A DNA stretch of 64,000 bases from Candidatus Multivoradales bacterium (GCA_965223855.1 CBDCXM010000009.1:2848001-2912000); one strand, 5' to 3'. Positions 36,155-48,767 are shown, counted from the first letter of the stretch. Notes: a model not told the origin generated them from the sequence alone. Made by a program: numbers and translations.

Positions 36155-39100
36155 GTGACAACCTACGCAAGAGTCCTGATCCGGCTATGGCTGATCGCCA
36201 TGGCCGTCACCATCGCCGGGGCCATCGCCGGGGCTCCTGCCTCGTCCGCGCAGACCACCTCCTCGGGGGTGAAGCAGAACGTCGAATTCAGGATCGTCGG
36301 CCCGAGCCGCGTGCGCGAGGGGCGACCGGCCCACTGGACGGTGGTAGCCGTCCGCCGGAGCGTGGCGAACACAGCCGAGGGCTACGCGCCTCGCGTGCGC
36401 GCTCACGCTGGTGGGGAGCTGCCGACCAAGTGGGTGCCGCCGGCGGAGTTCAGTTGGGACTTCGGCGACGGCACCGGGGTCAAGTCGACCGGCGATCATC
36501 CCGTGGCGACGCATGTCTACGAGCAGGACTCGAGTGACGCCCAGGACGGCGTCTTCACGCTGATCGCCTACGGACGAGACGAGCACGGCTGGTTGGTGGA
36601 GGCGACCAGGAAGATCGAGGTGACGAACCAGAAACCGCGGATCCCCCGCATCCGGGCCGTTGAGATCGACCCGACCACGAACCGGTTCGAGTTGACGGCG
36701 CGTGCCTTCGATGCCGAAGCGGACATGAACGAGCTCGTCTACGACTGGGACTTCGGCGACGAGACCCTCCTCGACGGCGGCTGGAAGGTGGAGCGTTCGT
36801 TCAAGTCCGCAGGGACGGCAACGGTGAAGCTGACGATCCGGGACGACGATGGCGAGGAGCTGAAGGCGGAGCGGGACATCAACGTCCGCGGCGCCTCTGC
36901 CGGAGCCTCGACGGCGGCCCCGATGCCGATGGACCCCGACGAGCGGCCGGACGCCATCTCTACCGGCCTCGTGGCGGAGCTCTTCGGCGACATGGGCACG
37001 ATCGACCTCGACGCCGAGATCCTGCCCTACACCGGCCTCTACCTCGTCAAGTCGGATGCATGCCGCTACCGCTTCCTGTGGACGGCGTGGGACGACGACA
37101 ACCTGGCCTCACTGATCTTCATCGCCGATCTCAACGGCCTTCCCGACGCGAAGGGCGGCGTCTACGAGCTGCAGCCGAACACGGCGCAACTGACCTTCCA
37201 CGCCGAGGGCGAGGACTGGATGAAGAGCTACGAGCGGGGGCGCATGGGCCTCGGCCTCGCGCGGCTCGGGTTCTCTCAGCCGCAGGTGGGTGAGTACATC
37301 GACGAGGGCGGCGACGATCCGGAGGAGATCCGCGGGGAGGTGAACCAGGAACTCGATGCTCTCGGAATCGGCCTCGCGGTAGGCCCGGGGGAACAGCGGA
37401 CTCCACCCCAGCCGCCCAGCCGTTCCCCTCTCGGTCTGAGTGAAGACGTCTGGTTCGCAATGGCCGGTGGCACCGTGCGCCTCACCCTCGTGCCGGGGCA
37501 GTACGCGCTCGCCGAACTGGATGGAGTCGTGCTGGCGACCGAGAATGACGAGGGGCCGGTGCAATCGGTCCGGTTCGGCAGCGAGAGCACCTTCCTGCTC
37601 GACCTGGCCACGGCGCGCCAGGACGGCATCGTCCAGGATCGGGAGGTGGGCATCCTGGCGCAGCAGGGGCCCGCGAACTGCGCACCGCCGCCGACACCGC
37701 TGAAAGTCGACAGCACGTACCCGAATGCCGACGAGGAATACGTCCGGCCGATCACCAGGATCAGCGTCGACTTCGATCAGCCCTACGACCTGAGCACGCT
37801 CGACGATCACTCCTTCCAGCTCACCTATCCGGAAGCCGGCTCGGGCGAGCTGGTGGTGGTCGACACCAAACTGCTGCGGGACCGCGACGCCGCGGACCTC
37901 GTGCCGCTCGAGCCGCTGTGGGGAGGCGTGACCTACACCGTGCGCGTCAAGGCGGGGGAGGAGGGGGTCAAGGGACTCGGCGGCACCGAGCTCGAGGGCG
38001 ACAGCGGCGACGGCTGGTACAAGTGGAAGTTCACCACCAGAGTCGATTTCTCGGCCACCGCAGACGGCGAGACGGGACTCTCCTGCCACACCATGCAGTC
38101 GGTCCGTGACGTGCCGCTGATCTGGGGCAAGCCGGCCGTGGCCCGGGTCTACGCGGAGTGGAAGCCACGGCCCGAAGTCGCCGAGGCCGCCCAGGTCAAG
38201 TCGTTCGCCGCCAAGCTCGTCATGAAGTCCGGTACCCAGGAGGTGGGATCGACAACCGCCAACTTCGTGCGCCAGGACCTCCTGGAGGCCTGGGGTGTCG
38301 ACAAGGCCGAGGCCCAGCACACCGCCAACATCTTCTGGACCCCTCGGGAGAGCCAGAACCCGGTGTCGTGGGTACAGGTCTCGATCCCGGGCGTCGACGA
38401 TCCGACCGTCTACTCGACGAGCTGCCCGACCCCGATGTGGACCGAAGCACCCAAGCTCGTGGTGCACCAGTACGTGCTCGGCCTCGGCGAGGCCGAGGAC
38501 GACGAGGGGCTGCGAATGGAGATGGCGTTCCAGGTCGATCAGATGCGCTACGAGATCGTCAGATACGCCGAGCAACTGCTCCCTTTCCAGGAGGTTCAGG
38601 TCGCTCCCGCACGCATCCTGGCGCTCGAGGAGGGTGAGGAGCTACCGCCCTGCACTCGACCGCGAAAGTGCCCGGCGATCTTCATGAGCCGCAAGGCGGG
38701 GACGGGGGGCCACATCCTCATCGGCTGGAAGCCGGGCGCCGCGGAAGGGGGGAAGCAGCAGAAGGTGGGGGAGATCGTCCAGGTGGATGGCCAGGTGCTG
38801 TTCCCGGGCGCCGGCGATCGCGGCCTGATCACCCTCGACCTGCCCTTGGCGGGGGAGATCCCCGAAGACCGGCTGATCTTCGCCGCCGTGCACGAGATCG
38901 GGCATGCGCTCCATCTCGAGCACCTGCCCTTCTTTCATGAGGACGAAGAGCGCGATGCCATGATCGTCCAGCGCGATCTCGGATTCGAGAATGCCCTCGA
39001 CGAGCCGGTGCACGAGCACAAGGGGATCGAAGGCTTCCGCATCGACGCCTCGGGCACGGAGGGGATCAACAAGTCCTCGACCGAGGGGAACGGCGAGTCG

Positions 39101-39223
39101 AGATGGCTGGTGCCGCTGATGTTTCCGGCGGGGATGTTCCGGCGCGATGCGTTCATCGCGCCACACCACTACTTGGATGTGCAGGAACTCATTGAAGAGA
39201 GTGCGGGGAGGTTCGGGGGGTAG
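36155..39223 (+). CDS. Large secreted protein: two PKD domains, Ig-like (Big_5) domain and C-terminal metzincin-like peptidase
   Basis: Signal peptide, FSWDFGDG and YDWDFGD, Big_5-like VDSTYP...YTVRV...WKFTT, HEIGHALHLEH with PLMFP Met-turn. Confidence 0.8.
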   Translation: MTTYARVLIRLWLIAMAVTIAGAIAGAPASSAQTTSSGVKQNVEFRIVGPSRVREGRPAHWTVVAVRRSVANTAEGYAPRVRAHAGGELPTKWVPPAEFSWDFGDGTGVKSTGDHPVATHVYEQDSSDAQDGVFTLIAYGRDEHGWLVEATRKIEVTNQKPRIPRIRAVEIDPTTNRFELTARAFDAEADMNELVYDWDFGDETLLDGGWKVERSFKSAGTATVKLTIRDDDGEELKAERDINVRGASAGASTAAPMPMDPDERPDAISTGLVAELFGDMGTIDLDAEILPYTGLYLVKSDACRYRFLWTAWDDDNLASLIFIADLNGLPDAKGGVYELQPNTAQLTFHAEGEDWMKSYERGRMGLGLARLGFSQPQVGEYIDEGGDDPEEIRGEVNQELDALGIGLAVGPGEQRTPPQPPSRSPLGLSEDVWFAMAGGTVRLTLVPGQYALAELDGVVLATENDEGPVQSVRFGSESTFLLDLATARQDGIVQDREVGILAQQGPANCAPPPTPLKVDSTYPNADEEYVRPITRISVDFDQPYDLSTLDDHSFQLTYPEAGSGELVVVDTKLLRDRDAADLVPLEPLWGGVTYTVRVKAGEEGVKGLGGTELEGDSGDGWYKWKFTTRVDFSATADGETGLSCHTMQSVRDVPLIWGKPAVARVYAEWKPRPEVAEAAQVKSFAAKLVMKSGTQEVGSTTANFVRQDLLEAWGVDKAEAQHTANIFWTPRESQNPVSWVQVSIPGVDDPTVYSTSCPTPMWTEAPKLVVHQYVLGLGEAEDDEGLRMEMAFQVDQMRYEIVRYAEQLLPFQEVQVAPARILALEEGEELPPCTRPRKCPAIFMSRKAGTGGHILIGWKPGAAEGGKQQKVGEIVQVDGQVLFPGAGDRGLITLDLPLAGEIPEDRLIFAAVHEIGHALHLEHLPFFHEDEERDAMIVQRDLGFENALDEPVHEHKGIEGFRIDASGTEGINKSSTEGNGESRWLVPLMFPAGMFRRDAFIAPHHYLDVQELIEESAGRFGG

Positions 39224-39378
39224 TGATCAGGGGCCTGAAGCTAGCAGTTGATCTGGCGCCGAGCCGAGCTGCTCCCTTCCCGGCCATTCACCTGGTACCG
39301 CCCTGTCTGGCGTCGCGCGGAGGGTCTGGCCGCATTGCGCAGCTACCTCAAGTCGCCCGGCTTCAGACCGAGAGGGCT

Positions 39379-40455
39379 CTACGGACGTTCGTCGTGAGCT
39401 CTCGACGCTCGCTTCCAAGCCTCGATAACAGATTCGAGAAGTGCTCCAAGTGGATTCCTGAGCGATGCCCAGTTCTTCGCCGTGATCTCCACCTCCAGGC
39501 ACGCCCAGGACTTTTCGATCCGGCGAGCCTGCGGGATCGCGGCGCAAAGGACCGTGATCGCATCCTCCGCGAGGTCTGAGACCCGGGGAGGGAGGTTGAG
39601 CAGGAGCGTGCTTCGTCTCTTCGTGTCGAGGTACAAGGTCGCATAGGAGCGGAGCGAGGGGCGTCCTTCCGAGGTCTGTTCCTGCAGGCTGAACGTGAAG
39701 GCGGTCTTCCCCGGCCAGCGATAGGCGGACGCCATGCGCGACTCGATGAAGTCAGCGACCTCGAGCAGGAGATCCCTGCTCCCGAGAGCTTCCGCGGACT
39801 CCAGCAGGACCCTGAGGTTGCCCGCCTTCGACTCGCTCTTGTTACGGGCGGCTCCCTGCTGCTGGGGCGGTGTCGTTTCGACTTGCTTTGCCAGCAGGGT
39901 TTGTCCCGCGACCTCGAAACCCTGGAAAGTAAGAAGTTGGATATCGATCGCCGACGCGGCGAGGAAGTTGACGATTCGCTTGGCCCGGTCATCGACGCCG
40001 AGCCCGACCAGCACCAGCCTGGGTGGCTCGGCCAGAGGTTCGTCGTTGTCTGGATAGGTCCGGTCGTACCAATCGACGAAGTCGTCGATACGTGGGATTC
40101 CATTCCTTCCCGAAGAGGCCTCGATCAAGCCGGCGAGTCGCTCGGTCGAGGCGTCTGCGAGGTCGGATCCGTAGTCCAGAATCTGCGCGACCGCCTCACG
40201 AGTGAGCATTCCCTTCTTGAGTTCGAAGATCACCACCCGGCCGTCGCCGTCGATCCCGAGTAGGTCGAGGGGGCCGCCCTCCGTCGGCACCTGGCGTCCG
40301 ACGAGAGTGAGGTCGCTCATCAGGAGATCCGGAGACTCCACGAGCAAGTCTTCCAGCACCGCCTCGGTTTCCGATGAGTCGACCATGGGCGCCGGAGCTG
40401 CAGCCACCGACCCGGAAGAGCCGGGGGAAACCGTCCAGACTTGGATTCTCTTCAC
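39379..40455 (-). CDS. NucS/EndoMS-like PD-(D/E)XK endonuclease domain protein
   Basis: EAVLEDLL...GRQV...PLDLLGIDGDGRVVIFELKK...AVAQILDY. Confidence 0.82.
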   Translation of the reverse strand: MKRIQVWTVSPGSSGSVAAAPAPMVDSSETEAVLEDLLVESPDLLMSDLTLVGRQVPTEGGPLDLLGIDGDGRVVIFELKKGMLTREAVAQILDYGSDLADASTERLAGLIEASSGRNGIPRIDDFVDWYDRTYPDNDEPLAEPPRLVLVGLGVDDRAKRIVNFLAASAIDIQLLTFQGFEVAGQTLLAKQVETTPPQQQGAARNKSESKAGNLRVLLESAEALGSRDLLLEVADFIESRMASAYRWPGKTAFTFSLQEQTSEGRPSLRSYATLYLDTKRRSTLLLNLPPRVSDLAEDAITVLCAAIPQARRIEKSWACLEVEITAKNWASLRNPLGALLESVIEAWKRASRAHDERP

Positions 40456-40697
40456 CGGCGAGAAGGTATCAGTTGGATTTCCTAGAGGGCTGGGAGTTGC
40501 CGCACCGCCATCGCCCGGAGGCTCCAGGCTTGGAGCCAGCGTAGACTTGGCCAGACCTTGGCAGAATAAGCGTCAGGAGATGCTCGCGCCGGCGGGTTTG
40601 TAGCTCGACCCACTCATCTGCTCTGAGCAGCTACCAAGTCTCCCGGCACCAACGCAGCCCCGAGCGGCCTTCACTTCAGATTGCAACTACCGACGCA

Positions 40698-41615
40698 ATG
40701 AAAGCCTATGTGGGAGTCACCGACTACGACTGGTTCCGATTCCTCAAGTCGGGCGATGTCGAGGAGGTCAACTTCTGGCAGCCGAGCGGGAGCAACCACT
40801 TCCGAGCGCTCGACCAAGGTGAGTTGTTCCTCTTCAAGCTCCATAGCCCGAGGAACTTCATCGTCGGCGGCGGCTTCTTCGCCCACTTCTCGATCATCCC
40901 GCACCGAACGGCTTGGGAGTTCTTCGGTGTCGCCAACGGCGCTGGGTCTTTCCAGGAGATGGAGACGAGGATCGGAAAGTACCGTCGAGTGGTCCCCGAC
41001 GCTCGGTCGAGCTTCGACATCGGCTGCATCCTCCTGGCCCAACCATTCTTTCTCGATGAAGAGCTTTGGATCCCGGTGCCGGAGGATTGGAAGCCGAACA
41101 TCGTTCGGGGGAAGACCTACGACCTGACCGACGGGCTAGGACGGGAGCTCTATGCTCAGCTTCAAGTAGCTCTGGCCGGGAATGTGGCTGAGTCGGAAGC
41201 CGTGGAGCCCAGCAGTCTCTACGGTGATCCGGTTCTCGTTCGCCCTCGCATCGGACAGGGCACCTTCAAGTCCCTCGTCGCCGACATCTATCAGCGGCGT
41301 TGCGCCGTTTCAGGAGAAAAGGCACTGCCAGCTCTCGACGCGGCGCATGTCCGTGCCGTCGCGAGCGGCGGTACTCACTCCGTAGACAACGGCATCCTGC
41401 TCAGATCGGACATTCACAGGCTGTTCGACGCCGGCTACGTCGGCATCACACCCGACTACCGCTTCATGGTCAGTCGTCGTCTCAAGGACGACTTCGACAA
41501 TGGAGAGCCCTACTATCCCTTGGCGGATCGTGAGATCTGGCTTCCCGCCGATCCCAGGAATCACCCGAATCGCGAGTACCTCGAAGAGCACTGCGACACG
41601 AGATTCCGTTACTGA
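40698..41615 (+). CDS. HNH endonuclease with N-terminal putative recognition domain
   Basis: RIGQGTFK...YQRRCAVSG...LDAAHV...NGILLRSDIHRLFD (HNH_2 type). Confidence 0.9.
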   Translation: MKAYVGVTDYDWFRFLKSGDVEEVNFWQPSGSNHFRALDQGELFLFKLHSPRNFIVGGGFFAHFSIIPHRTAWEFFGVANGAGSFQEMETRIGKYRRVVPDARSSFDIGCILLAQPFFLDEELWIPVPEDWKPNIVRGKTYDLTDGLGRELYAQLQVALAGNVAESEAVEPSSLYGDPVLVRPRIGQGTFKSLVADIYQRRCAVSGEKALPALDAAHVRAVASGGTHSVDNGILLRSDIHRLFDAGYVGITPDYRFMVSRRLKDDFDNGEPYYPLADREIWLPADPRNHPNREYLEEHCDTRFRY

Positions 41616-41641
41616 GCCAACAACCCGACGGATTGGACCTG

Positions 41642-41989
41642 ATGAACCTGACCGACCTTCGAGATCTACTCCGGGAGTTCGCCCGCGATCGTGACTGGGA
41701 TCAGTTCCATTCACCGAAGAACCTGGCGATGGCACTCAGCGTAGAGGCTGCCGAGCTTCTCGAGCAATTCCAGTGGCTGACCGAGGGCGAGTCGAGGGAG
41801 CTGGACAAGCAGCAACTCGAGAGCGCGGCCGAGGAGATCGCGGACATCCAGATCTACCTCGTCCGGCTCGCGGACAAACTGGGGATAGACATCCTCGAAG
41901 CAGCCAGCACCAAGATGCGCGCCAATGCCGAGAAGTACCCGGCCGAGTCTGTCCGCGGCAGCGCGAAGAAGTACAGCGAGTACGAGTAG
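41642..41989 (+). CDS. MazG-like nucleotide pyrophosphohydrolase
   Basis: RDWDQFHSPKNLAMALSVEAAELLEQFQW...EEIADI...KYP. Confidence 0.92.
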   Translation: MNLTDLRDLLREFARDRDWDQFHSPKNLAMALSVEAAELLEQFQWLTEGESRELDKQQLESAAEEIADIQIYLVRLADKLGIDILEAASTKMRANAEKYPAESVRGSAKKYSEYE

Positions 41990-41998
41990 GCCGTCCTG

Positions 41999-44395
41999 AT
42001 GCTGGTCTACACGGCCACCAAGAGCGAGTTCGTCGCCGACGTTCAGTCGAATCGCATCGAGGCGAAGATCCTCGCCGAGTTCCAGTCGCGACTCGGCTTT
42101 TCGACCGGCGCGAGCGAGATCGCTGCCTGGCGGAACTCGATGCAGTACATGCAGAACGTCCTACTCGACGACGGCATCCCGGACGACAGCGGGGTAGCGA
42201 TCGAGTACCGCATTCCGATGACCGCGAAGAGGATCGACTTCATCCTGACGGGCCGGGACGGAAGCGATCGTGAGTCCGTGGTGATCATCGAACTGAAGCA
42301 ATGGTCAGAGGCGACATCGACGCCGCTCGATGCCATCGTTGAGACCTTCGTCGGAGGAGGCATGCGCGAGGTCGCTCATCCTTCGTACCAGGCGTGGACC
42401 TACGCGGCACTCCTGGACGATTTCAATCAGGAGGTGCAGAACTCCGATCTCAGGCTCGCTCCCTGCGCCTACCTACACAACCTCGAAGACGGTTCGTCTT
42501 TGCGAGAGGAGCACTATCGCGAGCATCTCGACCGGGCACCACTCTTCATCCGTTCAGATGTCGACCGACTGGCCCGTTTCATCAAGAACTATGTTCGCAA
42601 GGGCGACAGAGACGACCTGCTGTACAGGATCGATCAGGGGCGGATCCGCCCCTCGAAGAACTTGGCGGACAGCCTCAGTTCGCTGCTCGAGGGGAACACC
42701 GAGTTCCACATGATCGACGACCAGAAGGTCGTCTACGAGAAAGCGTTGGAGCTGGCAGCGAAGGCGGCGGAGGGGGAGAAACAGGTCCTGATCGTGGAGG
42801 GCGGACCGGGAACCGGGAAATCGGTGGTGGCCATCAACCTTCTGGTGGAACTCACTCGGAGACTGAAGACCACGCAGTACGTGACTCGAAACGCTGCTCC
42901 CCGCGCCGTGTACAAGAGCAAGCTCACAGGGACGATGACGGGGACTCGCTTCGACAACCTGTTCCGCAGCTCTGGCGGCTTCATGGAATCAGAACCGGAC
43001 GTCTTCGACTGTCTCATCGTCGACGAAGCCCACCGTCTCAACGAGAAGTCGGGGCTCTACCAGAACCTGGGCGTCAACCAGGTCAAGGAACTCATCGACG
43101 CCTCCAGATCGACCGTCTTCTTCGTCGACGATCGACAACGGGTCACCCTGAAGGACATCGGCACGGCATCGGAGATCCGGCATTGGGCCGCCATCGCAGG
43201 AGCTGAAGTGACCGAGCTGAAGCTGGCTTCCCAGTTCCGGTGCAACGGATCCGACGGCTATCTCGCCTGGCTCGACAACGCCCTTCAGATCGAGTCCACG
43301 GCCGTCGAGACACTCGAGGGCATCGATTTCGATTTCCGCGTGGTCGACTCGGCAGCTGAACTCCGCGATCTGATCCTCGACCGCAATGTCGCCGACAACA
43401 AGGCGAGGTTGGTGGCCGGCTACTGCTGGCCGTGGGCGAGCAAGAAGAATCCCGCAGCGATGGACATCGAGCTTGAGGACGGTGCGTTCCGGATGCAGTG
43501 GAACCTGACCAGGGACGGAGGGAACTGGATCATGATGCCGGACTCCGTCGAGCAGGTGGGGTGCATTCACACCTGTCAGGGGCTTGAGCTCGACTACGTC
43601 GGCGTCATCCTCGGGCCGGATCTGGTCGTGCGAAACGGCGAGGTGGTGACGGATGCGACCGAGCGCGCCAGCCAGGATCGCTCCGTGTTCGGCTACAAAA
43701 AGCGGAGCAGAGAAGACCCCGTGGGGATGGCGAGACTGGCAGCCGAGATCATCAAGAACACGTATCGCACCTTGATGACGCGAGGACAGAAGGGGTGCTA
43801 CGTGCATTCTGTCGATCCTGAGACGAACGCCTACCTCAAGGATGCGATTGGATCTCGAGTTCTTGGAAACGCCGAGTCGGAGGTGGAGCCGCTTCACCCC
43901 TTCCCTGTCGTCTCCGGAGAAGAGCTGCGGCCCTGGGAGAATGCCGTTCCGCTCTACGACCTCCAAGTGGCTGCTGGCGCCCTCAGCGAGGCGACCGAGC
44001 CCGAGGTTCTCGATTGGGTGGCGCTCCCGGAGCACTATCGAATCAGCGAGGGGCTCTTCGTCGCGCGTGTTGTTGGGGAATCGATGAACCGACGTGTCGC
44101 GAACGGTTCCTGGTGCCTCTTCAAGGCTCACCCGACCGGGAGTCGGGCTGGAAGAGTAGTGCTGGCGCAGCACCGAGAGATTTCCGATCCGGAGCTCGGC
44201 GGGCAATACACCCTCAAGCTCTACGAAGGCGGGCCGGCACTGGACGAGAGCGGCAGCCGAAGCGGTAGCGTCATCCTTAGACCGATGTCCACCGATTCAC
44301 GGTTTCAGCCCCTGGTTCTGTCTCAAGAAGTCGCCGAGGGACTGTCGGTGCTGGCTGAGCTGCTGGGAGTGCTCCTTCCCGGCTCGTCGCGTTAG
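41999..44395 (+). CDS. DUF2075 (Schlafen group 3-like) SF1 helicase with N-terminal nuclease-like and C-terminal S24 peptidase domains
   Basis: RIDF...[44 protein letters not shown]-terminal [11 protein letters not shown]...VVGESM...YTLK. Confidence 0.88.
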
Positions 44396-44441
44396 TCGAT
44401 CGCGAGAAAGCCGCGCAGAATCGAGTGGCACCTCCAGAGGG

Positions 44442-44546
44442 GGTGAAGGGGAGGATGACGCGGCCGTACTGCGACTGTTTGAAGTCGCCGCGCAGGAGGT
44501 CGGCGACGGACCAGATGAAGGAGACCTTTTCGGAGAAGCGGTTCAT
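44442..44546 (-). pseudogene. hsdM: 5' fragment (35 codons) of a type I RM methyltransferase
   Basis: [35 protein letters not shown] is a typical HsdM N-terminus. Similarity ends abruptly after ILPFT. Confidence 0.85.
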
Positions 44547-44568
44547 GGCGTGCCTCGGGGAGCGCTTT

Positions 44569-45705
44569 CTATTGGAGTGCGCCGCTCTTGTGGGTTTCGA
44601 GGAACCAATCGAGGACTACCAGGAAGTCGTTCATCCTGGATTCTTCGGCCAGCAGTGCGATGGGTATCGACGGCCGCTTGCGGAGGCGATCGCGGGGGAG
44701 TTCGATCCCGTCGATGGAGGTGAAGCGCTCGAACAGCTCTTCGAGGACGGCGTCGTCGTCGAAGGGGGCGCGACGCAGAAGGTGTTGAAACTGGAACTCG
44801 ACGCCGCCTCCGGTCCACAACGCGATCACACTCGACCAGACGCCATTGACGGTCAGGCCAGGGAAGAAGGACCCGGACTGGGCACCCTCGCCCCAGTAGA
44901 ACTCCGGCATCCGGTCTTTAGCCCAGGTGAAGAGCCTGCGGGCCGGAGCTACGGCCGCCGGATCGTTCGCCTCGAGCTCGCGGAAGAACGACTCTTCGTC
45001 CCACTTCCTCTTGGTGGTACCCGATTTCCGTTGGGTCGCCGCCGTTTGGCCGAGGAGCCTGGGAACGAGTGTCTGCAAGCCGCGGCCCGAGAACTGCTTG
45101 ATCTCCACGGCGAGGACTTCGGTCGTTCCCATCTGCTCGTTGAGGAACTCGACGACTCTTCGAAGCTCTGAGGGTACCCAGTCGGCAACGAACAGGAGGC
45201 GAAGGCGCCCTGCCGAGAGGTTCGCGCCGACCCGGACCCAAAAGTCGTCGTAGTCGAGGTCCTCCGGTTCTTCTTCGAGGAGGTCGGCTACCCTGGCAGC
45301 GGCGGCCGCGGAGTCCTCGTGTCGCTCCTCGAAGCGGCGGCGCAGCTCCTGAACCGGCAGGTGGGCGACGAGATTGGCGGCGTAGTCGAGTACTTGCCCT
45401 ACAACCTCTCGTCGAATGCGAGGATCGTCCGCACGCTTGACCTCAACAAGAGTCGGTATAGCGTCCTGATCGACGAACAGGTGGTCGAGCGACCACCAGT
45501 TGCCGCCTTCGGGTTCGTTGGGAATACCGCACTCCCGGTCGATGAGAATCCACCGGCGGGGAGTATGCTCGTTGATCTGATCCCCACCGAGCAGGTCGGG
45601 GTAGTCCTCGAGGAGGGCCTGAAGAAGATCCTCGGAGTCGTAGTCGGTCTCGTCGAGGGGGCTCAGGGAGCCCTTCTGATCGAGGAGGAAGATGCGCCGA
45701 GGCAT
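44569..45705 (-). CDS. NucS-like PD-(D/E)XK endonuclease domain protein
   Basis: SEDLLQALL...[20 protein letters not shown]...[11 protein letters not shown]. Confidence 0.8.
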
Positions 45706-45898
45706 GTGGCTTTCATCGGAAGTAGGAGCGGTCCGATGCGGTTCTCTGCAAATCGGTGTGGCGAGTGCGGCGCACTATATCGACTTGGGGCCTCCGCCCC
45801 TTCTACTTGCACTAGCGGTTGCCGGTGACGCCTGGCTGGTGGCCTCGTGCTCTGACAACGTGAAGCCGGTACGTGAAGTGGGAGTCAGCGCTCCGAGG

Positions 45899-46240
45899 TC
45901 AGGAACGAGGAGCGGAGGATCCTGCGCTCTCTTCGAAGAAGCAAGCGCGCAGCTCGTGTTCGTAGTCGCCCATTCCAGCCTCCTCGAGGAGATTGGCGAC
46001 AATCTGCCGATGGAGCGGCCGAAGGCGCTCGTTGACGAGGGTGGTCTGAGAGTAGGCTGAACTCCCCTTGCTCTTGAGTCCCTGGATCAGCCGCTCACGA
46101 AAGTCGATCTCTCGATGGACTTGGTCGGAGAGGAGGGCAAGAGTGCCAACTCTCGACGTTCGGTTCATCTCTCTGCGCTGGAGCAACAGCGCACAGACGG
46201 CAATCAGGGTTCCACCGAACCCGATGAGAATCTCAATCAC
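45899..46240 (-). CDS. Small hypothetical membrane protein
   Basis: GTG after GGGAGG. N-terminal TM followed by a helical region. Confidence 0.55.
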   Translation of the reverse strand: MIEILIGFGGTLIAVCALLLQRREMNRTSRVGTLALLSDQVHREIDFRERLIQGLKSKGSSAYSQTTLVNERLRPLHRQIVANLLEEAGMGDYEHELRACFFEESAGSSAPRS

Positions 46241-46622
46241 ACTGCCTCCCCGTGTTGTCACCGCGGCGTTTCGCGGTGTGTTCAGGACGCAATCATAGTA
46301 CGCAATATGCAAGTTCTTGGTGGCTCACCTGGGGGGTGGAGAGGGTGTCTCGCACTCGACTCTCGAGAAGGAGGCGCAAGGATTGTCTGGGCGCCGCGAT
46401 TCACCTGCGTGGGGTGCAGTCGCGACGGAGGACAAAGAGGAGTCGTAGGGCGGGTGCCGTTGATGCTGTCCCAGACGGCTTCATCCCGCGTCAGCACTAT
46501 GTCGATGTGCAGACGCCCATCGACGAGAACTCGGCGAGGTTGGGCGAGGGCTGAGCACTGCGTTCGCGCAGCGAGCCGGTGACCGTTGGTTGCAGGAGCC
46601 TGTTGCCAGGCGCTGTCGGAGG

Positions 46623-46883
46623 TCAGGCTTCGTCGATCGCGGCCTTGAGCGGGAACCTCTCCGGGTGCTCGATGGACTCGACGGCGAGGTCCACATCGAG
46701 TTCTGGCCAGTAGAGGTGGTGGTTCTGCGGACGCTCCACGTTCAGGATCGCCTCGACCGATGCTCCCTTGAACCAGGGGAACTCCTCGAAGGGAAGGAAG
46801 AGTTCACGATCCCCAAGAAACACCCAGAAACCGTGCCGAGAGATGTTGGTGATCTCAGCCTCCGAAATGACGCTGCCAGGCAT
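46623..46883 (-). CDS. DUF2442 domain protein (putative antitoxin)
   Basis: HGFWV...LPFEEFPWF...LYWPELDVDLAVESI. Confidence 0.85.
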   Translation of the reverse strand: MPGSVISEAEITNISRHGFWVFLGDRELFLPFEEFPWFKGASVEAILNVERPQNHHLYWPELDVDLAVESIEHPERFPLKAAIDEA

Positions 46884-47094
46884 TCCAGATCTCCCGCTCG
46901 TGTTCCTCGATGAGTTTCTCTATCCGGCGAAGGTCCGGGCTTCCGAAGCCGTAGTTCCTGGCGAGCTCGATCTCGGGCTCGACCCAGAACTTCGCCTCAC
47001 CTTCTGCCGAGACGACATGGATGTGGATCCTGGGTTCCTCCCGCGAGAAAAAGAAGAAGCGGAACGGTCCCGCGCGGAAGACTGTCGGACTCAC
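46855..47094 (-). CDS. DUF4160 domain protein (putative toxin)
   Basis: PTVFRAGPFRFFFFSREEPRIHIHV...AKFW...AWQRHFG. Confidence 0.88.
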   Translation of the reverse strand: MSPTVFRAGPFRFFFFSREEPRIHIHVVSAEGEAKFWVEPEIELARNYGFGSPDLRRIEKLIEEHEREIWNAWQRHFGG

Positions 47095-47147
47095 CGGCCT
47101 ATTCTATCGCCCATCAGAGTCTGACCCCTCGTGCCGCCGAGGGGCCG

Positions 47148-47176
47148 TTGCCACTGCGCCCCCGATCCCCTATGAT
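47148..47176 (+). promoter_or_regulatory. Sigma70-type promoter for tRNA-Thr
   Basis: TTGCCA, 17 nt spacer, TATGAT. Confidence 0.7.
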
Positions 47177-47221
47177 CCCGTCGCTCAGACGGACTGGCCC
47201 GCCAGGCGCCGTCAACCAGAA

Positions 47222-47297
47222 GCCGATGTAGCTCAGCTGGTAGAGCAGCTGATTCGTAATCAGCAGGTCAGCGGTTCGAGTCCGCTCATCGGCTCCA
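47222..47297 (+). tRNA. tRNA-Thr(CGT)
   Basis: Acceptor GCCGATG/CATCGGC, D arm GCTC..GAGC, anticodon stem GCTGA-TTCGTAA-TCAGC, GGTTCGAG T loop, encoded CCA. 76 nt. Confidence 0.97.
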
Positions 47298-47357
47298 CAG
47301 TCAGCCTGGCACCCAGTTCACGCATCCACTCCGTTGCACGCGGGGTAGGATCGCCGC

Positions 47358-48767
47358 ATGTTCTCGATCGACACGTATGTCTCCCGCCGGCGTCGGCTGG
47401 CGGAACGGATGAGTGCGGCCGGAGCGAGCGGCCTTGTGCTGGTGATGGGCAACGACGAGGCGCCGCTCAACTACCGGGACAACCACTATCCGTTCCGGCA
47501 GGATTCCTCGTTTCTCTACTTCTTCGGCTTGAATGAGGCGAATCTGGCCGGGGTGATCGATCTCGACAGCGGGGCGGAGACGCTCTTCGGGCACGAGCCG
47601 ACGCTCGACGACATCGTCTGGACGGGGCCGTTGCCGTCGCTGGGGGAGCGGGCGGAGAGTGTCGGAGTCGGGGCGGCGATGGATATCGGCCACCTGGGAG
47701 AGACGGTGCAGCGGGCGCGCTCGGAGGGGCGCACGGTGCACGTGCTGCCGGCGTACCGCGGCGACGGCGTGTTGAAGCTCGCCGGGGTGCTGGGGATCGC
47801 TCCTTCGGAGGTCGAGGGGGCGGTGTCGGAGGCGCTGGTGCGCTCTGTGATCGCGTTGCGCTCGCCCAAGGAGGCACGGGAGGTCGCCGAGATCGAGAAG
47901 GCGCTCGAGGTGTCGTTCCACACGCATACGGCGGCGATGAAGGCGACGAGGCCGGGGCGCTACGAGTGGGAGGTGGTGCGGAAGGTCGAGGCGTGCCATG
48001 CCCGGCATGGCTCGCCGGTGTCGTTTCCGATCATCCTGAGCGTGCGCGGCGAGGTGCTCCACAACCATGCGCACGGCAACCGGATGGAGCCGGGGCAGCT
48101 GGTGGTGCACGACTCGGGGGCGACATCGCCGGAGGGGTACGCCTCGGACATCACGCGGACGTTTCCCGTGTCCGGGACGTTCGATACCCGGCAGCGAGAG
48201 ATCTACACGATCGTGCTGGAGGCGCTGGAGGAGGCGACGCGGGCGGTGAAGCCGGGGATGCCGTTCATCGACGTCTACAAGACGGCGGCGCGCTCGCAGA
48301 TGGAGGGGCTGAAGGCGCTCGGGCTGGTGCGGGGCGACACCCATGAAGCTGTGGAGCAGGGAGCGCATGCGGCGTTCCTGCAGTGCGGTACCGGGCACAT
48401 GATCGGGCTCGACGTCCACGACATGGAGGGGCTGGGCGAGGAGCTGGTGGGCTACGACGACACGATCCGGCGCTCGGAGCTCTTCGGGGTCTGCTACGTG
48501 CGGCTCGGGCGCGCGCTCGAGGCGGACTGGGTGGTGGCGGTGGAGCCGGGGATCTACTTCATCCCCGAGCTGATCGACCGCTGGTCGGCGGAGGGGAAGT
48601 ACGCCGACTTCATCGACTGGGAGAAGGTCGCGGCCTACCAGGACTTCGGCGGGGTGCGGATCGAGGACGACGTGCTGGTGACCGCCGACGGCCACCGGGT
48701 GCTGGGGCCGCCGATTCCGAAGACGGTGGCGGATGTCGAGGCGATCGTGGGGCAGGACGAGGAGTAG
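47358..48767 (+). CDS. Xaa-Pro aminopeptidase (aminopeptidase P family)
   Basis: FRQDSSFLYFFG, YASDITRTFP, GHMIGLDVHD, VEPGIYF, GVRIEDD. Confidence 0.93.
   Translation: MFSIDTYVSRRRRLAERMSAAGASGLVLVMGNDEAPLNYRDNHYPFRQDSSFLYFFGLNEANLAGVIDLDSGAETLFGHEPTLDDIVWTGPLPSLGERAESVGVGAAMDIGHLGETVQRARSEGRTVHVLPAYRGDGVLKLAGVLGIAPSEVEGAVSEALVRSVIALRSPKEAREVAEIEKALEVSFHTHTAAMKATRPGRYEWEVVRKVEACHARHGSPVSFPIILSVRGEVLHNHAHGNRMEPGQLVVHDSGATSPEGYASDITRTFPVSGTFDTRQREIYTIVLEALEEATRAVKPGMPFIDVYKTAARSQMEGLKALGLVRGDTHEAVEQGAHAAFLQCGTGHMIGLDVHDMEGLGEELVGYDDTIRRSELFGVCYVRLGRALEADWVVAVEPGIYFIPELIDRWSAEGKYADFIDWEKVAAYQDFGGVRIEDDVLVTADGHRVLGPPIPKTVADVEAIVGQDEE

Follow-up and report, generated by a model that had tools for sequence, protein, structure and literature searches.

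The locus and its genes

We consider here a stretch of DNA of 64,000 nucleotides (nt) from Candidatus Multivoradales bacterium (GCA_965223855.1 CBDCXM010000009.1:2848001-2912000), called the window below, and within it a block of three genes at 40698..44395 that we name g1, g2 and g3. An earlier note, written from the sequence alone, had proposed that this block is a three-gene anti-phage system made of an HNH nuclease, a MazG-like protein and a nuclease/DUF2075 helicase ending in an S24 autopeptidase. Its description of three tightly packed genes on one strand is borne out by the open reading frames (ORFs), which are read in the same orientation throughout with gaps of 26 nt (g1 to the ATG of g2) and 9 nt (g2 to g3), and Pfam, together with the follow-up comparisons below, gives the same domain assignments. 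The three genes and the domains of g3, with lengths in amino acids (aa), are:

40698-41615, plus strand: g1, a PUA-superfamily N-terminal domain and an HNH_2 nuclease, 305 aa (Pfam, AlphaFold2 (AF2), Foldseek)
41642-41989, plus strand: g2, a DCTPP1/RS21-C6-like all-alpha MazG nucleoside triphosphate (NTP) pyrophosphatase, 115 aa from the ATG (PF12643, PDB match)
41999-44395, plus strand: g3, a predicted nuclease-helicase-autopeptidase, 798 aa (PF09848, AF2, Foldseek)
41999-42718, plus strand: g3 N-terminal domain, aa 1-240, putative NERD-type PD-(D/E)xK nuclease with D80 (42236-42238), E98 (42290-42292) and K100 (42296-42298)
42779-43816, plus strand: g3 DUF2075/SLFN-group-3 superfamily 1B (SF1B) helicase core, aa 261-606, with Walker A GGPGTGKS, K274 (42818-42820), and Walker B D342/E343
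43949-44392, plus strand: g3 C-terminal LexA/UmuD-type S24 domain, aa 651-798, a predicted autopeptidase with site A659-G660 (43973-43978), Ser695 (44081-44083) and Lys740 (44216-44218)

The start of g2 can also be placed at a TTG at 41633, which gives 118 aa instead of the 115 aa from the ATG at 41642. None of the three is a chance ORF, since their full-length homologues number in the thousands.

The conserved unit

The first question is whether the same three genes, in this order, are kept together in other genomes. Scanning 185,579 genomes, one per species, gives 592 matching stretches with at least 545 confirmed relatives, and the best 80 loci are studied here. By tblastn with the window proteins, a MazG-like gene is found in 64 of these 80 loci, lying less than 200 nt from the helicase gene on the same strand in 61 (53 upstream, 8 downstream) and farther away in 3. 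When all ORFs of the 80 loci are clustered all against all, MazG is the sole real recurrent neighbour.

Full-length relatives of g1, in contrast, lie beside the pair at just 3 of the 80 loci, and in three different arrangements: downstream on the same strand, in the order MazG-helicase-HNH (L002); upstream and divergent (L036); and in the HNH-MazG-helicase order of the window, with a 32-nt gap and about 50% identity (L072). Taking the last of these as a clean second trio is weakened by its MazG and helicase genes, which are broken over frames and are either degraded or error-ridden. Members of another HNH_2 family (about 310 aa) are next to the pair in L001, L036, L046, L061 and L062, and in L046 the gene abuts the helicase stop codon. 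Counting any HNH_2 gene, about 7-8 of the 80 loci have one beside the pair, without a constant position or strand, and in three of them it is divergent. Since the g1 family has 6564 homologues and full-length members turn up at only three of the 80 helicase loci, most of the family evidently lies elsewhere. Co-occurrence of the three genes in other genomes, which the earlier note had set as a test of its candidate system, is thus not borne out, and an obligate trio is not supported: judged from these sequences, the conserved unit is the pair of g2 and g3, and the HNH gene is a recurrent but optional neighbour.

The pair is also met in forms other than two adjacent genes. Two proteins of 735 aa (P0335 and P0336, 99% identical to each other, from three contigs) are fusions of the helicase with a C-terminal MazG-like domain; their nuclease-helicase part is 49% identical to residues 1-617 of g3, and the MazG-like domain takes the place of the S24 tail. 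A further protein (P0333) and a fragment (P0341) also join PF12643 to PF09848, so that helicase-MazG fusions make up 4 of the 112 "longer" matches of g2. In one protein of 266 aa (P0246) a MazG-like domain is combined with an HNH C-terminus like that of g1. On a haloarchaeal plasmid (L081, NC_014298.1 272434-274676) a gene annotated "nucleotide pyrophosphohydrolase" ends 5 nt before the DUF2075 gene, and a record of 22 kb, deposited under the name of a Microcystis phage (L083, PP438423.1), has a gene of 109 aa in MazG's place before the DUF2075 gene. The pairwise divergences of g2 and g3 are correlated (Mantel r 0.61, with none of 2000 permutations as high, n=55 pairs; the set omits the three loci with a distant MazG and those missing either ORF).

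The putative nuclease-helicase body of g3

The helicase core of g3 (aa 261-606) matches SLFN-g3_helicase/DUF2075 (PF09848) with an E value of 1.7e-101; its ATPase motifs are intact, and the Walker A and Walker B columns are invariant in the alignment. The AF2 model of g3 has a predicted local distance difference test score (pLDDT) of 78 and is matched by Foldseek to RecD2, RecD, SLFN11, Dna2 and Dda, while a linker at aa ~617-650 is of low confidence (pLDDT 29 at aa 620-630). Comparing a profile of the whole of g3 with the PDB gives weak matches to RecD and LexA (E 0.02-0.2); a profile of the S24 domain by itself does better.

Ahead of the core, D80, E98 and K100 are invariant in 24 aligned sequences. 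The N-termini of the family match Pfam below threshold, to NERD in 6 of 8 and to Endonuc_Holl in 2 of 8, and we consider this domain a probable nuclease of the NERD-type PD-(D/E)xK class. The homologues of g3 are abundant, with more than 8000 clusters scored, and the forms of about 795 aa are 55-60% identical across many phyla.

The MazG-like pyrophosphatase g2

The g2 protein matches the MazG-like family PF12643 with an E value of 1.4e-15 (57.8 bits, the cut-off being 27), and in the PDB it matches dCTP pyrophosphatase 1, or RS21-C6, by sequence (2a3q/6sqw, E 1e-23). Its metal ligands E35, E38, E65 and D68, in the pattern E-x-x-E ... E-x-x-D, are invariant together with W19 and W45 in 36 aligned partners, and the same six residues are kept in at least 95% of 61 partners.

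Aligned to DCTPP1, with the pocket residues that are named in the available text of PMC4491611, g2 retains seven of eight: Trp47, Trp73 and Tyr102 of DCTPP1 correspond to W19, W45 and Y72 of g2, and His38 corresponds to Leu10. According to the same text, DCTPP1 prefers dCTP and its 5-methyl and 5-halo derivatives, and the two Trp residues contact the 5-methyl group (PMC4491611). The two differ in setting, as g2 is encoded with a nuclease-helicase and not alone. We find no report of a bacterial defence role for the MazG clade of g2 in our literature searches. Depleting or cleaning the dNTP pool is itself a known idea in defence, as with dCTP deaminase and dGTPase. In PADLOC, g2 has no real match, and a match to TnsB (E 0.007) is taken as chance.

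The S24 tail

The Peptidase_S24 match scores 23.2 bits in the whole of g3, just below the cut-off of 23.3, and 26.7 bits when the C-terminus is taken alone. Across the family the assignment is firmer. We align 23 C-termini, from 22 helicases and one SauUSI-like protein, and all of them match PF00717 (best E 1.1e-13). Invariant in this set are the predicted cleavage site, A-[A/C]-G, and both residues of the S24 dyad, the serine of G-x-S-M and the lysine. The best PDB sequence matches of the S24 profile are LexA chains (E 2e-3), with the AAG of LexA aligned to the AAG of the family (A659-G660 in g3). The tail of g3 thus has in common with LexA, lambda CI and UmuD the Ala/Cys-Gly site, the G-x-S-M serine and the catalytic lysine, and it differs in what it is attached to: a nuclease-helicase of 650 aa, whereas the S24 domain of LexA, CI and UmuD sits on a DNA-binding domain or a short tail. 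The invariant site and dyad make it plausible that the helicase is under proteolytic control, as had been suggested earlier.

The tail is present in 39 of the 80 loci (33 with an adjacent MazG) and absent from 32 (21 with an adjacent MazG), and the remaining 9 are cut by contig ends. On a FastTree tree of 79 helicase cores, in which the phyla are intermingled, the presence or absence of the tail requires at least 10 changes, 8 of them forced by well-supported branches, and the presence of MazG requires 13, so that both behave as modular parts.

The same S24 subfamily is found on other enzymes. With a profile of the S24 domain we collect 543 cluster representatives at E <= 1e-30, and the best 150 (P0353-P0502) are scanned with Pfam, 43 at E <= 1e-6 and 107 at E <= 1e-8. 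Sorted by what accompanies the S24 domain, these 150 are:

DUF2075: 26
Type ISP or Eco57I-MmeI type: 11
DUF3427: 7
HsdR-like: 5
Type II endonuclease domains (AlwI, XhoI, LlaJI, RE_endonuc): 5
ResIII/SNF2: 2
McrBC: 1
Type I specificity subunit (HsdS): 1
PLD: 1
Schlafen AlbA_2: 1
MrfA-type Zn domain: 3
Topoisomerase-type Zn ribbon: 1
HTH: 3
S24 only: 44, and nothing: 39 (many of these are short and may be fragments)

A second recognisable domain is present in 67 of these 150 representatives and is of a restriction or defence type in 60 of the 67. The tail also occurs on a SauUSI-like protein encoded near one of the studied helicases (L031:10678-11184, minus strand). Going by these domain assignments, restriction enzymes of many classes carry the S24 subfamily found in g3 as an addition at the C-terminus.

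The HNH protein g1

The g1 protein matches HNH_2 in Pfam (E 3.7e-11) and consists of a PUA-superfamily (ASCH/EVE-like) domain, aa 1-~165, and the HNH_2 domain, aa ~178-305. Its AF2 model shows these two domains with high confidence (pLDDT 88.8), and over both of them the best fold matches in the PDB are VcaM4I (6yex, E 4e-9) and TagI (6ghs, E 1.2e-5) by Foldseek; the HNH part also matches 6yex by sequence (E 6e-6). H217, N231 and H240 are invariant across 31 aligned sequences, in keeping with the catalytic His/Asn/His of HNH nucleases. Its family of 6564 homologues among the candidates scored consists of proteins of about 305 aa, which some sources label putative restriction endonucleases.

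VcaM4I (EVE-HNH) and TagI (SRA-HNH) are modification-dependent enzymes with the two-domain plan of g1. The identity between them and g1 is only 13-15%, however, and the N-terminal domain of g1 is nearest to ASCH structures (5y6b/5gus, TM(target) 0.63-0.65) rather than to EVE or SRA. From the modelled fold we consider g1 probably a stand-alone type IV-like restriction endonuclease that would cut DNA with modified bases, and the suggestion that the HNH protein acts on modified DNA is to this extent plausible. Assigning g1 to the phosphorothioate-dependent ScoMcrA-type endonucleases (NCBIfam NF045808) is rejected, with 56.2 bits against a cut-off of 180 and an alignment confined to the HNH end.

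Defence neighbourhood of the pair

The pair is common and mobile, and it occurs in bacteria and archaea; we regard it as a concrete candidate for a defence system. Relatives of the helicase lie on plasmids too (Methanosphaera, Hymenobacter and haloarchaeal), and one is in a phage record. An immediate neighbour that matches PADLOC at E <= 1e-25 is present in 31 of the 80 loci. This count is built from 131 neighbours (at least 150 aa, within 2.5 kb), of which 31 matched, in 28 loci, and from nine more that were set aside for size; seven of the nine were scanned separately by Pfam and/or PADLOC (five by PADLOC), and these add L009, L033 and L043. Genes of the g1 type fall below the PADLOC threshold and are outside the 31.

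A type IV-like gene lies within about 3.5 kb in 20 of the 80 loci (SauUSI-like 9, McrBC-like 4, GmrSD 1 and HNH_2 7, with one overlap), where some of the assignments rest on membership in a cluster with an annotated representative. The SauUSI-like neighbours are PLD-helicase-DUF3427 proteins, often accompanied by a small NUDIX gene. Taken together, and as far as gene content can indicate it, the pair is a horizontally spread two-gene module of defence islands, in surroundings rich in type IV enzymes.

Several arrangements recur around the pair. In Bacillota and at one Bacteroidota locus, the DUF2075 gene shares one array with MazG, a small NUDIX gene (PDC-S07) and a SauUSI-like gene that matches PADLOC mREase_IV with up to 1008 bits (L041:1007-8149, L049:3136-8962, L064:7001-12524, L033:7001-12765, L066:6659-12081), and in L033 the NUDIX gene stands in the usual MazG position. 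A RhuM/Fic protein (PADLOC PDC-S23/PDC-S05) lies beside the pair in 5 of the 80 loci (L004, L008, L043 at 140-1123, L056 and L068). AbiEi/AbiEii pairs recur near the pair in the Halomonas group, and a match to a dGTPase model adjoins L067.

Comparison with known systems

Running PADLOC (models of version 2.0.0, from 2023) gives no exact match to the trio, in agreement with the earlier note, which did not recognise it as a named system; Nhi, AbiO and PDC-S41 match partially. Against g3, Nhi scores 34 bits (profile 185-331 of 470) and AbiO 35 bits (176-329 of 468), both over the Walker A-B part only. Against 13 relatives of g3, Nhi scores 37-58 bits (13 of 13) and AbiO 39-66 bits (12 of 13), none of these full-length. 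By full-length sequence g3 does not belong to the AbiO or Nhi models, although it has the DUF2075 core with intact ATPase motifs.

The build of g3 is nevertheless probably theirs. Nhi of S. epidermidis (SERP2475), "Nhi-like" and lactococcal AbiO have a PD-(D/E)xK nuclease followed by a DUF2075/SLFN-group-3 SF1B helicase, and g3 has this helicase behind a putative nuclease domain of the same class. According to the available text of their descriptions, Nhi, "Nhi-like" (Millman et al. 2022) and AbiO are anti-phage systems of a single gene (bioRxiv 10.1101/776245; 10.1101/2022.05.11.491447; PMC13064643), and degradation of DNA is reported for Nhi and proposed for AbiO (bioRxiv 10.1101/776245; PMC13064643). 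Unlike g3, none of the three is mentioned in that text with a MazG partner or an S24 tail. The comparison with "Nhi-like" is by description only, and it may be the same thing as the S24-less form of the g3 family.

The best PADLOC match of g3 is PDC-S41, an unvalidated single-gene candidate (E 1.1e-18, 64.9 bits, aa 4-288 of g3 to 6-262 of the 657 positions of the profile), whose profile length of 657 is near that of the S24-less form of the g3 family. The relatives of g3 match it with 49-76 bits and again partially, either over the N-terminal 6-262 or over the C-terminal ~420-630 of the 657, and not over most of the profile. By these alignments g3 is a cousin of the PDC-S41 family and not a member.

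A parallel to the pairing itself is found in SauUSI, a type IV enzyme with a linked NUDIX gene, in which, as with g3 and g2, an enzyme with nuclease and motor goes together with a small nucleotide pyrophosphohydrolase. The components are different throughout: PLD versus the putative PD-(D/E)xK for the nuclease, superfamily 2 (SF2) versus SF1B for the motor, NUDIX versus the all-alpha MazG, and g3 does not have the DUF3427 reader. In the available text of Xu et al. 2011 (PMC3141236), at least 60 instances of a conserved NUDIX gene linked with SauUSI are reported, and the role of this gene is left open. DUF3427 nucleases next to DUF2075 NTPases are noted in the available text of Lutz et al. 2019 (PMC6765204).

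In our literature searches, papers on DUF2075 included, we find no description of a pairing of MazG with DUF2075 or of a defence helicase with an S24 tail. What is known, then, is the AbiO/Nhi-type build, and what is apparently undescribed is the pairing with MazG and the fusion to S24; these may be named in sources beyond those searched.

Proposed mechanism and its alternatives

Combining the conservation of the pair with the build of its components, we propose that g1 is a separate restriction enzyme and that g2 and g3 form a conserved anti-phage module with the AbiO/Nhi build and an obligate-looking MazG partner. This is a reading of sequences, which we hold with moderate confidence. The comparison shows that the two genes of the pair are co-inherited and sometimes fused, and that the residues expected to be catalytic are conserved in the putative nuclease, in the ATPase and in the MazG protein, as are the dyad and the cleavage site of the S24 domain. 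According to the proposal, the nuclease-helicase of g3 would load onto invading phage DNA and degrade it, and g2 would hydrolyse nucleotides of the dCTP type, probably with a modification at position 5; the latter is suggested by the seven of eight DCTPP1 pocket residues that are kept, among them the two Trp residues in contact with the 5-substituent. The hydrolysis could serve either of two ends: it could starve phages that build modified genomes, or it could keep salvaged modified nucleotides out of the host DNA and so spare the host from its own type IV enzymes.

The S24 tail would act as a switch in the manner of LexA and CI, with self-cleavage at A659-G660 stimulated by RecA filaments. 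Such a cleavage would part the body of g3 from the probably dimerising S24 domain and tie the activity to DNA damage. In LexA and CI, cleavage splits the working domain from the dimerising domain and results in inactivation, while for UmuD such a cleavage brings activation. We lean towards an off-switch, by which restriction would be alleviated during SOS. Two points favour it: g3 shares with LexA and CI the order of body, linker with site and S24 domain, and the same S24 subfamily sits on constitutive restriction enzymes.

As for g1, it is probably co-transcribed with g2 and g3 in this genome and in a few others, and it may cooperate with the pair against cytosine-modified phages, not as a required component.

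Several observations weigh against the proposed module. The nuclease domain of g3 is below every Pfam threshold, and at the identities given above its helicase shows more conservation than is usual in defence genes. In g2, the pocket residue His38 of DCTPP1 is replaced by Leu, and proteins 45-66% identical to g2 also occur as parts of other fusions, with GGDEF, NUDIX and further unrelated domains, which means that the MazG clade is not exclusive to the pair. No MazG-like gene is found in 16 of the 80 loci, so the helicase can apparently stand alone, and the correlation of the g2 and g3 divergences could also stem from a shared host history.

The alternative that survives best keeps the same pair and reverses the switch: the S24 domain would hold g3 inactive, self-cleavage triggered by RecA filaments, formed on intermediates of phage replication or on DNA cut by restriction, would turn it on, and MazG would deplete dCTP in the style of abortive infection. 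The activation of UmuD is a precedent for the direction of the switch, and the nucleotide-depleting defences, one of which has its model match beside L067, are a precedent for the role of MazG. The S24-less relatives in 32 of the 80 loci indicate a tail that is dispensable for the core activity. Nuclease-helicase defences activated by DNA damage are described as well, in the available text, with Hachiman (PMC13064643) and AbpAB as examples. Against this, the S24 subfamily is carried by restriction enzymes that work without being activated (type I HsdR, type ISP, AlwI- and XhoI-type), and a nuclease turned on by any SOS event would put the host chromosome at risk. With its S24 domain at the C-terminus after body and site, g3 has the layout of LexA and CI, where cleavage inactivates. 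We consider this on-switch unlikely.

Slightly less probable still is that the pair serves repair and not immunity: g3 would be an SOS-linked repair nuclease-helicase and g2 a house-cleaning pyrophosphatase directed against aberrant analogues of dCTP, both carried on mobile DNA. MazG and DCTPP1 enzymes do sanitise nucleotide pools, according to the available text of PMC4491611, PMC3855555 and PMC10014863, the S24 domain is LexA/UmuD-like, the sequences are strongly conserved across phyla, and 3 of the 150 S24 relatives have a Zn-binding domain that takes its name from MrfA, a repair helicase. The distribution, however, is patchy, with the confirmed stretches numbering at least 545 in the 185,579 species genomes, and the helicase tree mixes phyla, with copies on plasmids and in the phage record. 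Neighbours matching defence models in 31 of the 80 loci and an S24 subfamily found mostly on restriction enzymes also speak for immunity, as do AbiO and Nhi, which come closest in build among characterised proteins and are anti-phage as far as the available text describes them.

That HNH, MazG and helicase are one obligate three-component system retains a small probability, a shade below that of the repair function. In its favour are the arrangement in the window, with the same orientation, gaps of 26 and 9 nt and no terminator-like site between the genes; the loci L072 (same order, 32-nt gap, about 50% identity), L002 (MazG-helicase-HNH) and L046 (HNH_2 abutting the helicase stop); the protein P0246, which joins a g1-like HNH end to a MazG-like domain; and the nearest relatives of g1 and g3, at 73% identity each, for both of which the longest contig listed has 9022 nt, which fits one shared contig but does not prove it. 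Opposed to these are the full-length g1 relatives at 3 of the 80 loci and the HNH_2 genes of any kind at about 7-8, with position and strand varying and three of them divergent; the size of the g1 family (6564 homologues); the MazG and helicase genes of L072, split over frames; and the SauUSI-like, McrBC-like and GmrSD genes that occupy the neighbouring place of the HNH gene in other loci. That three unrelated defence genes merely lie side by side, so that not even MazG and helicase are linked in function, is a reading that we strongly disfavour: defence genes do cluster, and this island has two PDC-S11-like genes and an hsdM remnant besides, but the same-strand adjacency of MazG in 61 of the 80 loci, which spans many phyla and extends to an archaeon, the helicase-MazG fusions and the correlated divergences of g2 and g3 all stand against it.

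Returning to the anti-phage pair with an off-switch, we may ask whether it is an instance of two design rules of DNA-targeting immunity. By the first, motor nucleases that act on modified DNA would be paired with their own pyrophosphatase (MazG with DUF2075, NUDIX with SauUSI), which would destroy modified nucleotides of the dCTP type. By the second, the LexA-type S24 tail would be a plug-in, RecA-sensing switch that wires type I, type ISP, type II, SauUSI-like and DUF2075 enzymes to the SOS response. That the dedicated pyrophosphatase and the plug-in switch hold jointly as rules is a tentative suggestion, and rather doubtful as it stands. If true, the second rule would be a self-contained form of restriction alleviation and would change the view of alleviation and of self-protection. 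The linkage of a type IV motor nuclease to a pyrophosphatase has been open since 2011 with SauUSI and its NUDIX gene, and the pair of g2 and g3 offers a testable answer to it.

Flanks of the block

We turn finally to the surroundings of the block in the window, where the GC profile gives 0.60-0.63 over ~39-47 kb and 0.66-0.70 on either side. The features of this island and its edges are:

36155-39223, plus strand: protein of 1022 aa at the left island edge, with PKD and Big_5 domains and an HExxH-like motif near the C-terminus
39379-40455, minus strand: NucS_C-like nuclease (NucS_C E 6e-8), PADLOC candidate PDC-S11 (E 5.3e-33), a separate defence-island gene
44442-44546, minus strand, within the ORF 44277-44546: hsdM remnant (HsdM_N E 1.3e-6, aa 9-35; MTase_I E 1.3e-11, aa 2-35)
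44569-45705, minus strand: second, distant PDC-S11-like gene (PDC-S11 E 1.3e-13; no family in the Pfam scan)
46623-46883, minus strand: DUF2442 gene (E 6e-17), overlapping the DUF4160 gene
46855-47094, minus strand: DUF4160 gene (E 1.5e-16), beside the tRNA-Thr
47222-47297, plus strand: tRNA-Thr (CGT), found by ARAGORN, at the right edge of the low-GC island

The AT-richer stretch, the defence-island setting, the two flanking NucS-like genes and the broken hsdM that had been described from the sequence are all recovered, with the qualification that the left gene matches both NucS_C and PDC-S11 and the right one PDC-S11 alone. The two genes that bracket the trio are distant paralogues (33% identity over 91 aa), and no relative of either is found by tblastn among the 80 related loci. 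The hsdM remnant retains just the first ~35 codons, its HsdM-homologous part stopping ~47 nt past the stop codon of g3. This suggests a rearrangement boundary right after g3, where the block replaced or truncated a type I restriction-modification system. By ORF, Pfam and PADLOC scans the island holds this hsdM stump and no intact methyltransferase.

No integrase is seen, and 38900-47500 shows no att-like pair of direct repeats, the matches there being short and imperfect. Scanning 40300-44700 for promoters and terminators gives no promoter-like site and one terminator-like site (on the opposite strand, inside g3), a scan that is uninformative for a high-GC genome. An ORF of 137 aa at 45899-46312 has no Pfam match. 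The overlapping DUF4160 and DUF2442 genes sit as a pair between the PDC-S11-like/hsdM flank and the tRNA-Thr; this pairing is frequent in mobile islands. At the other edge, the 1022-aa PKD/Big_5 protein (36155-39223) is, from its domains and motif, probably a secreted metalloprotease.

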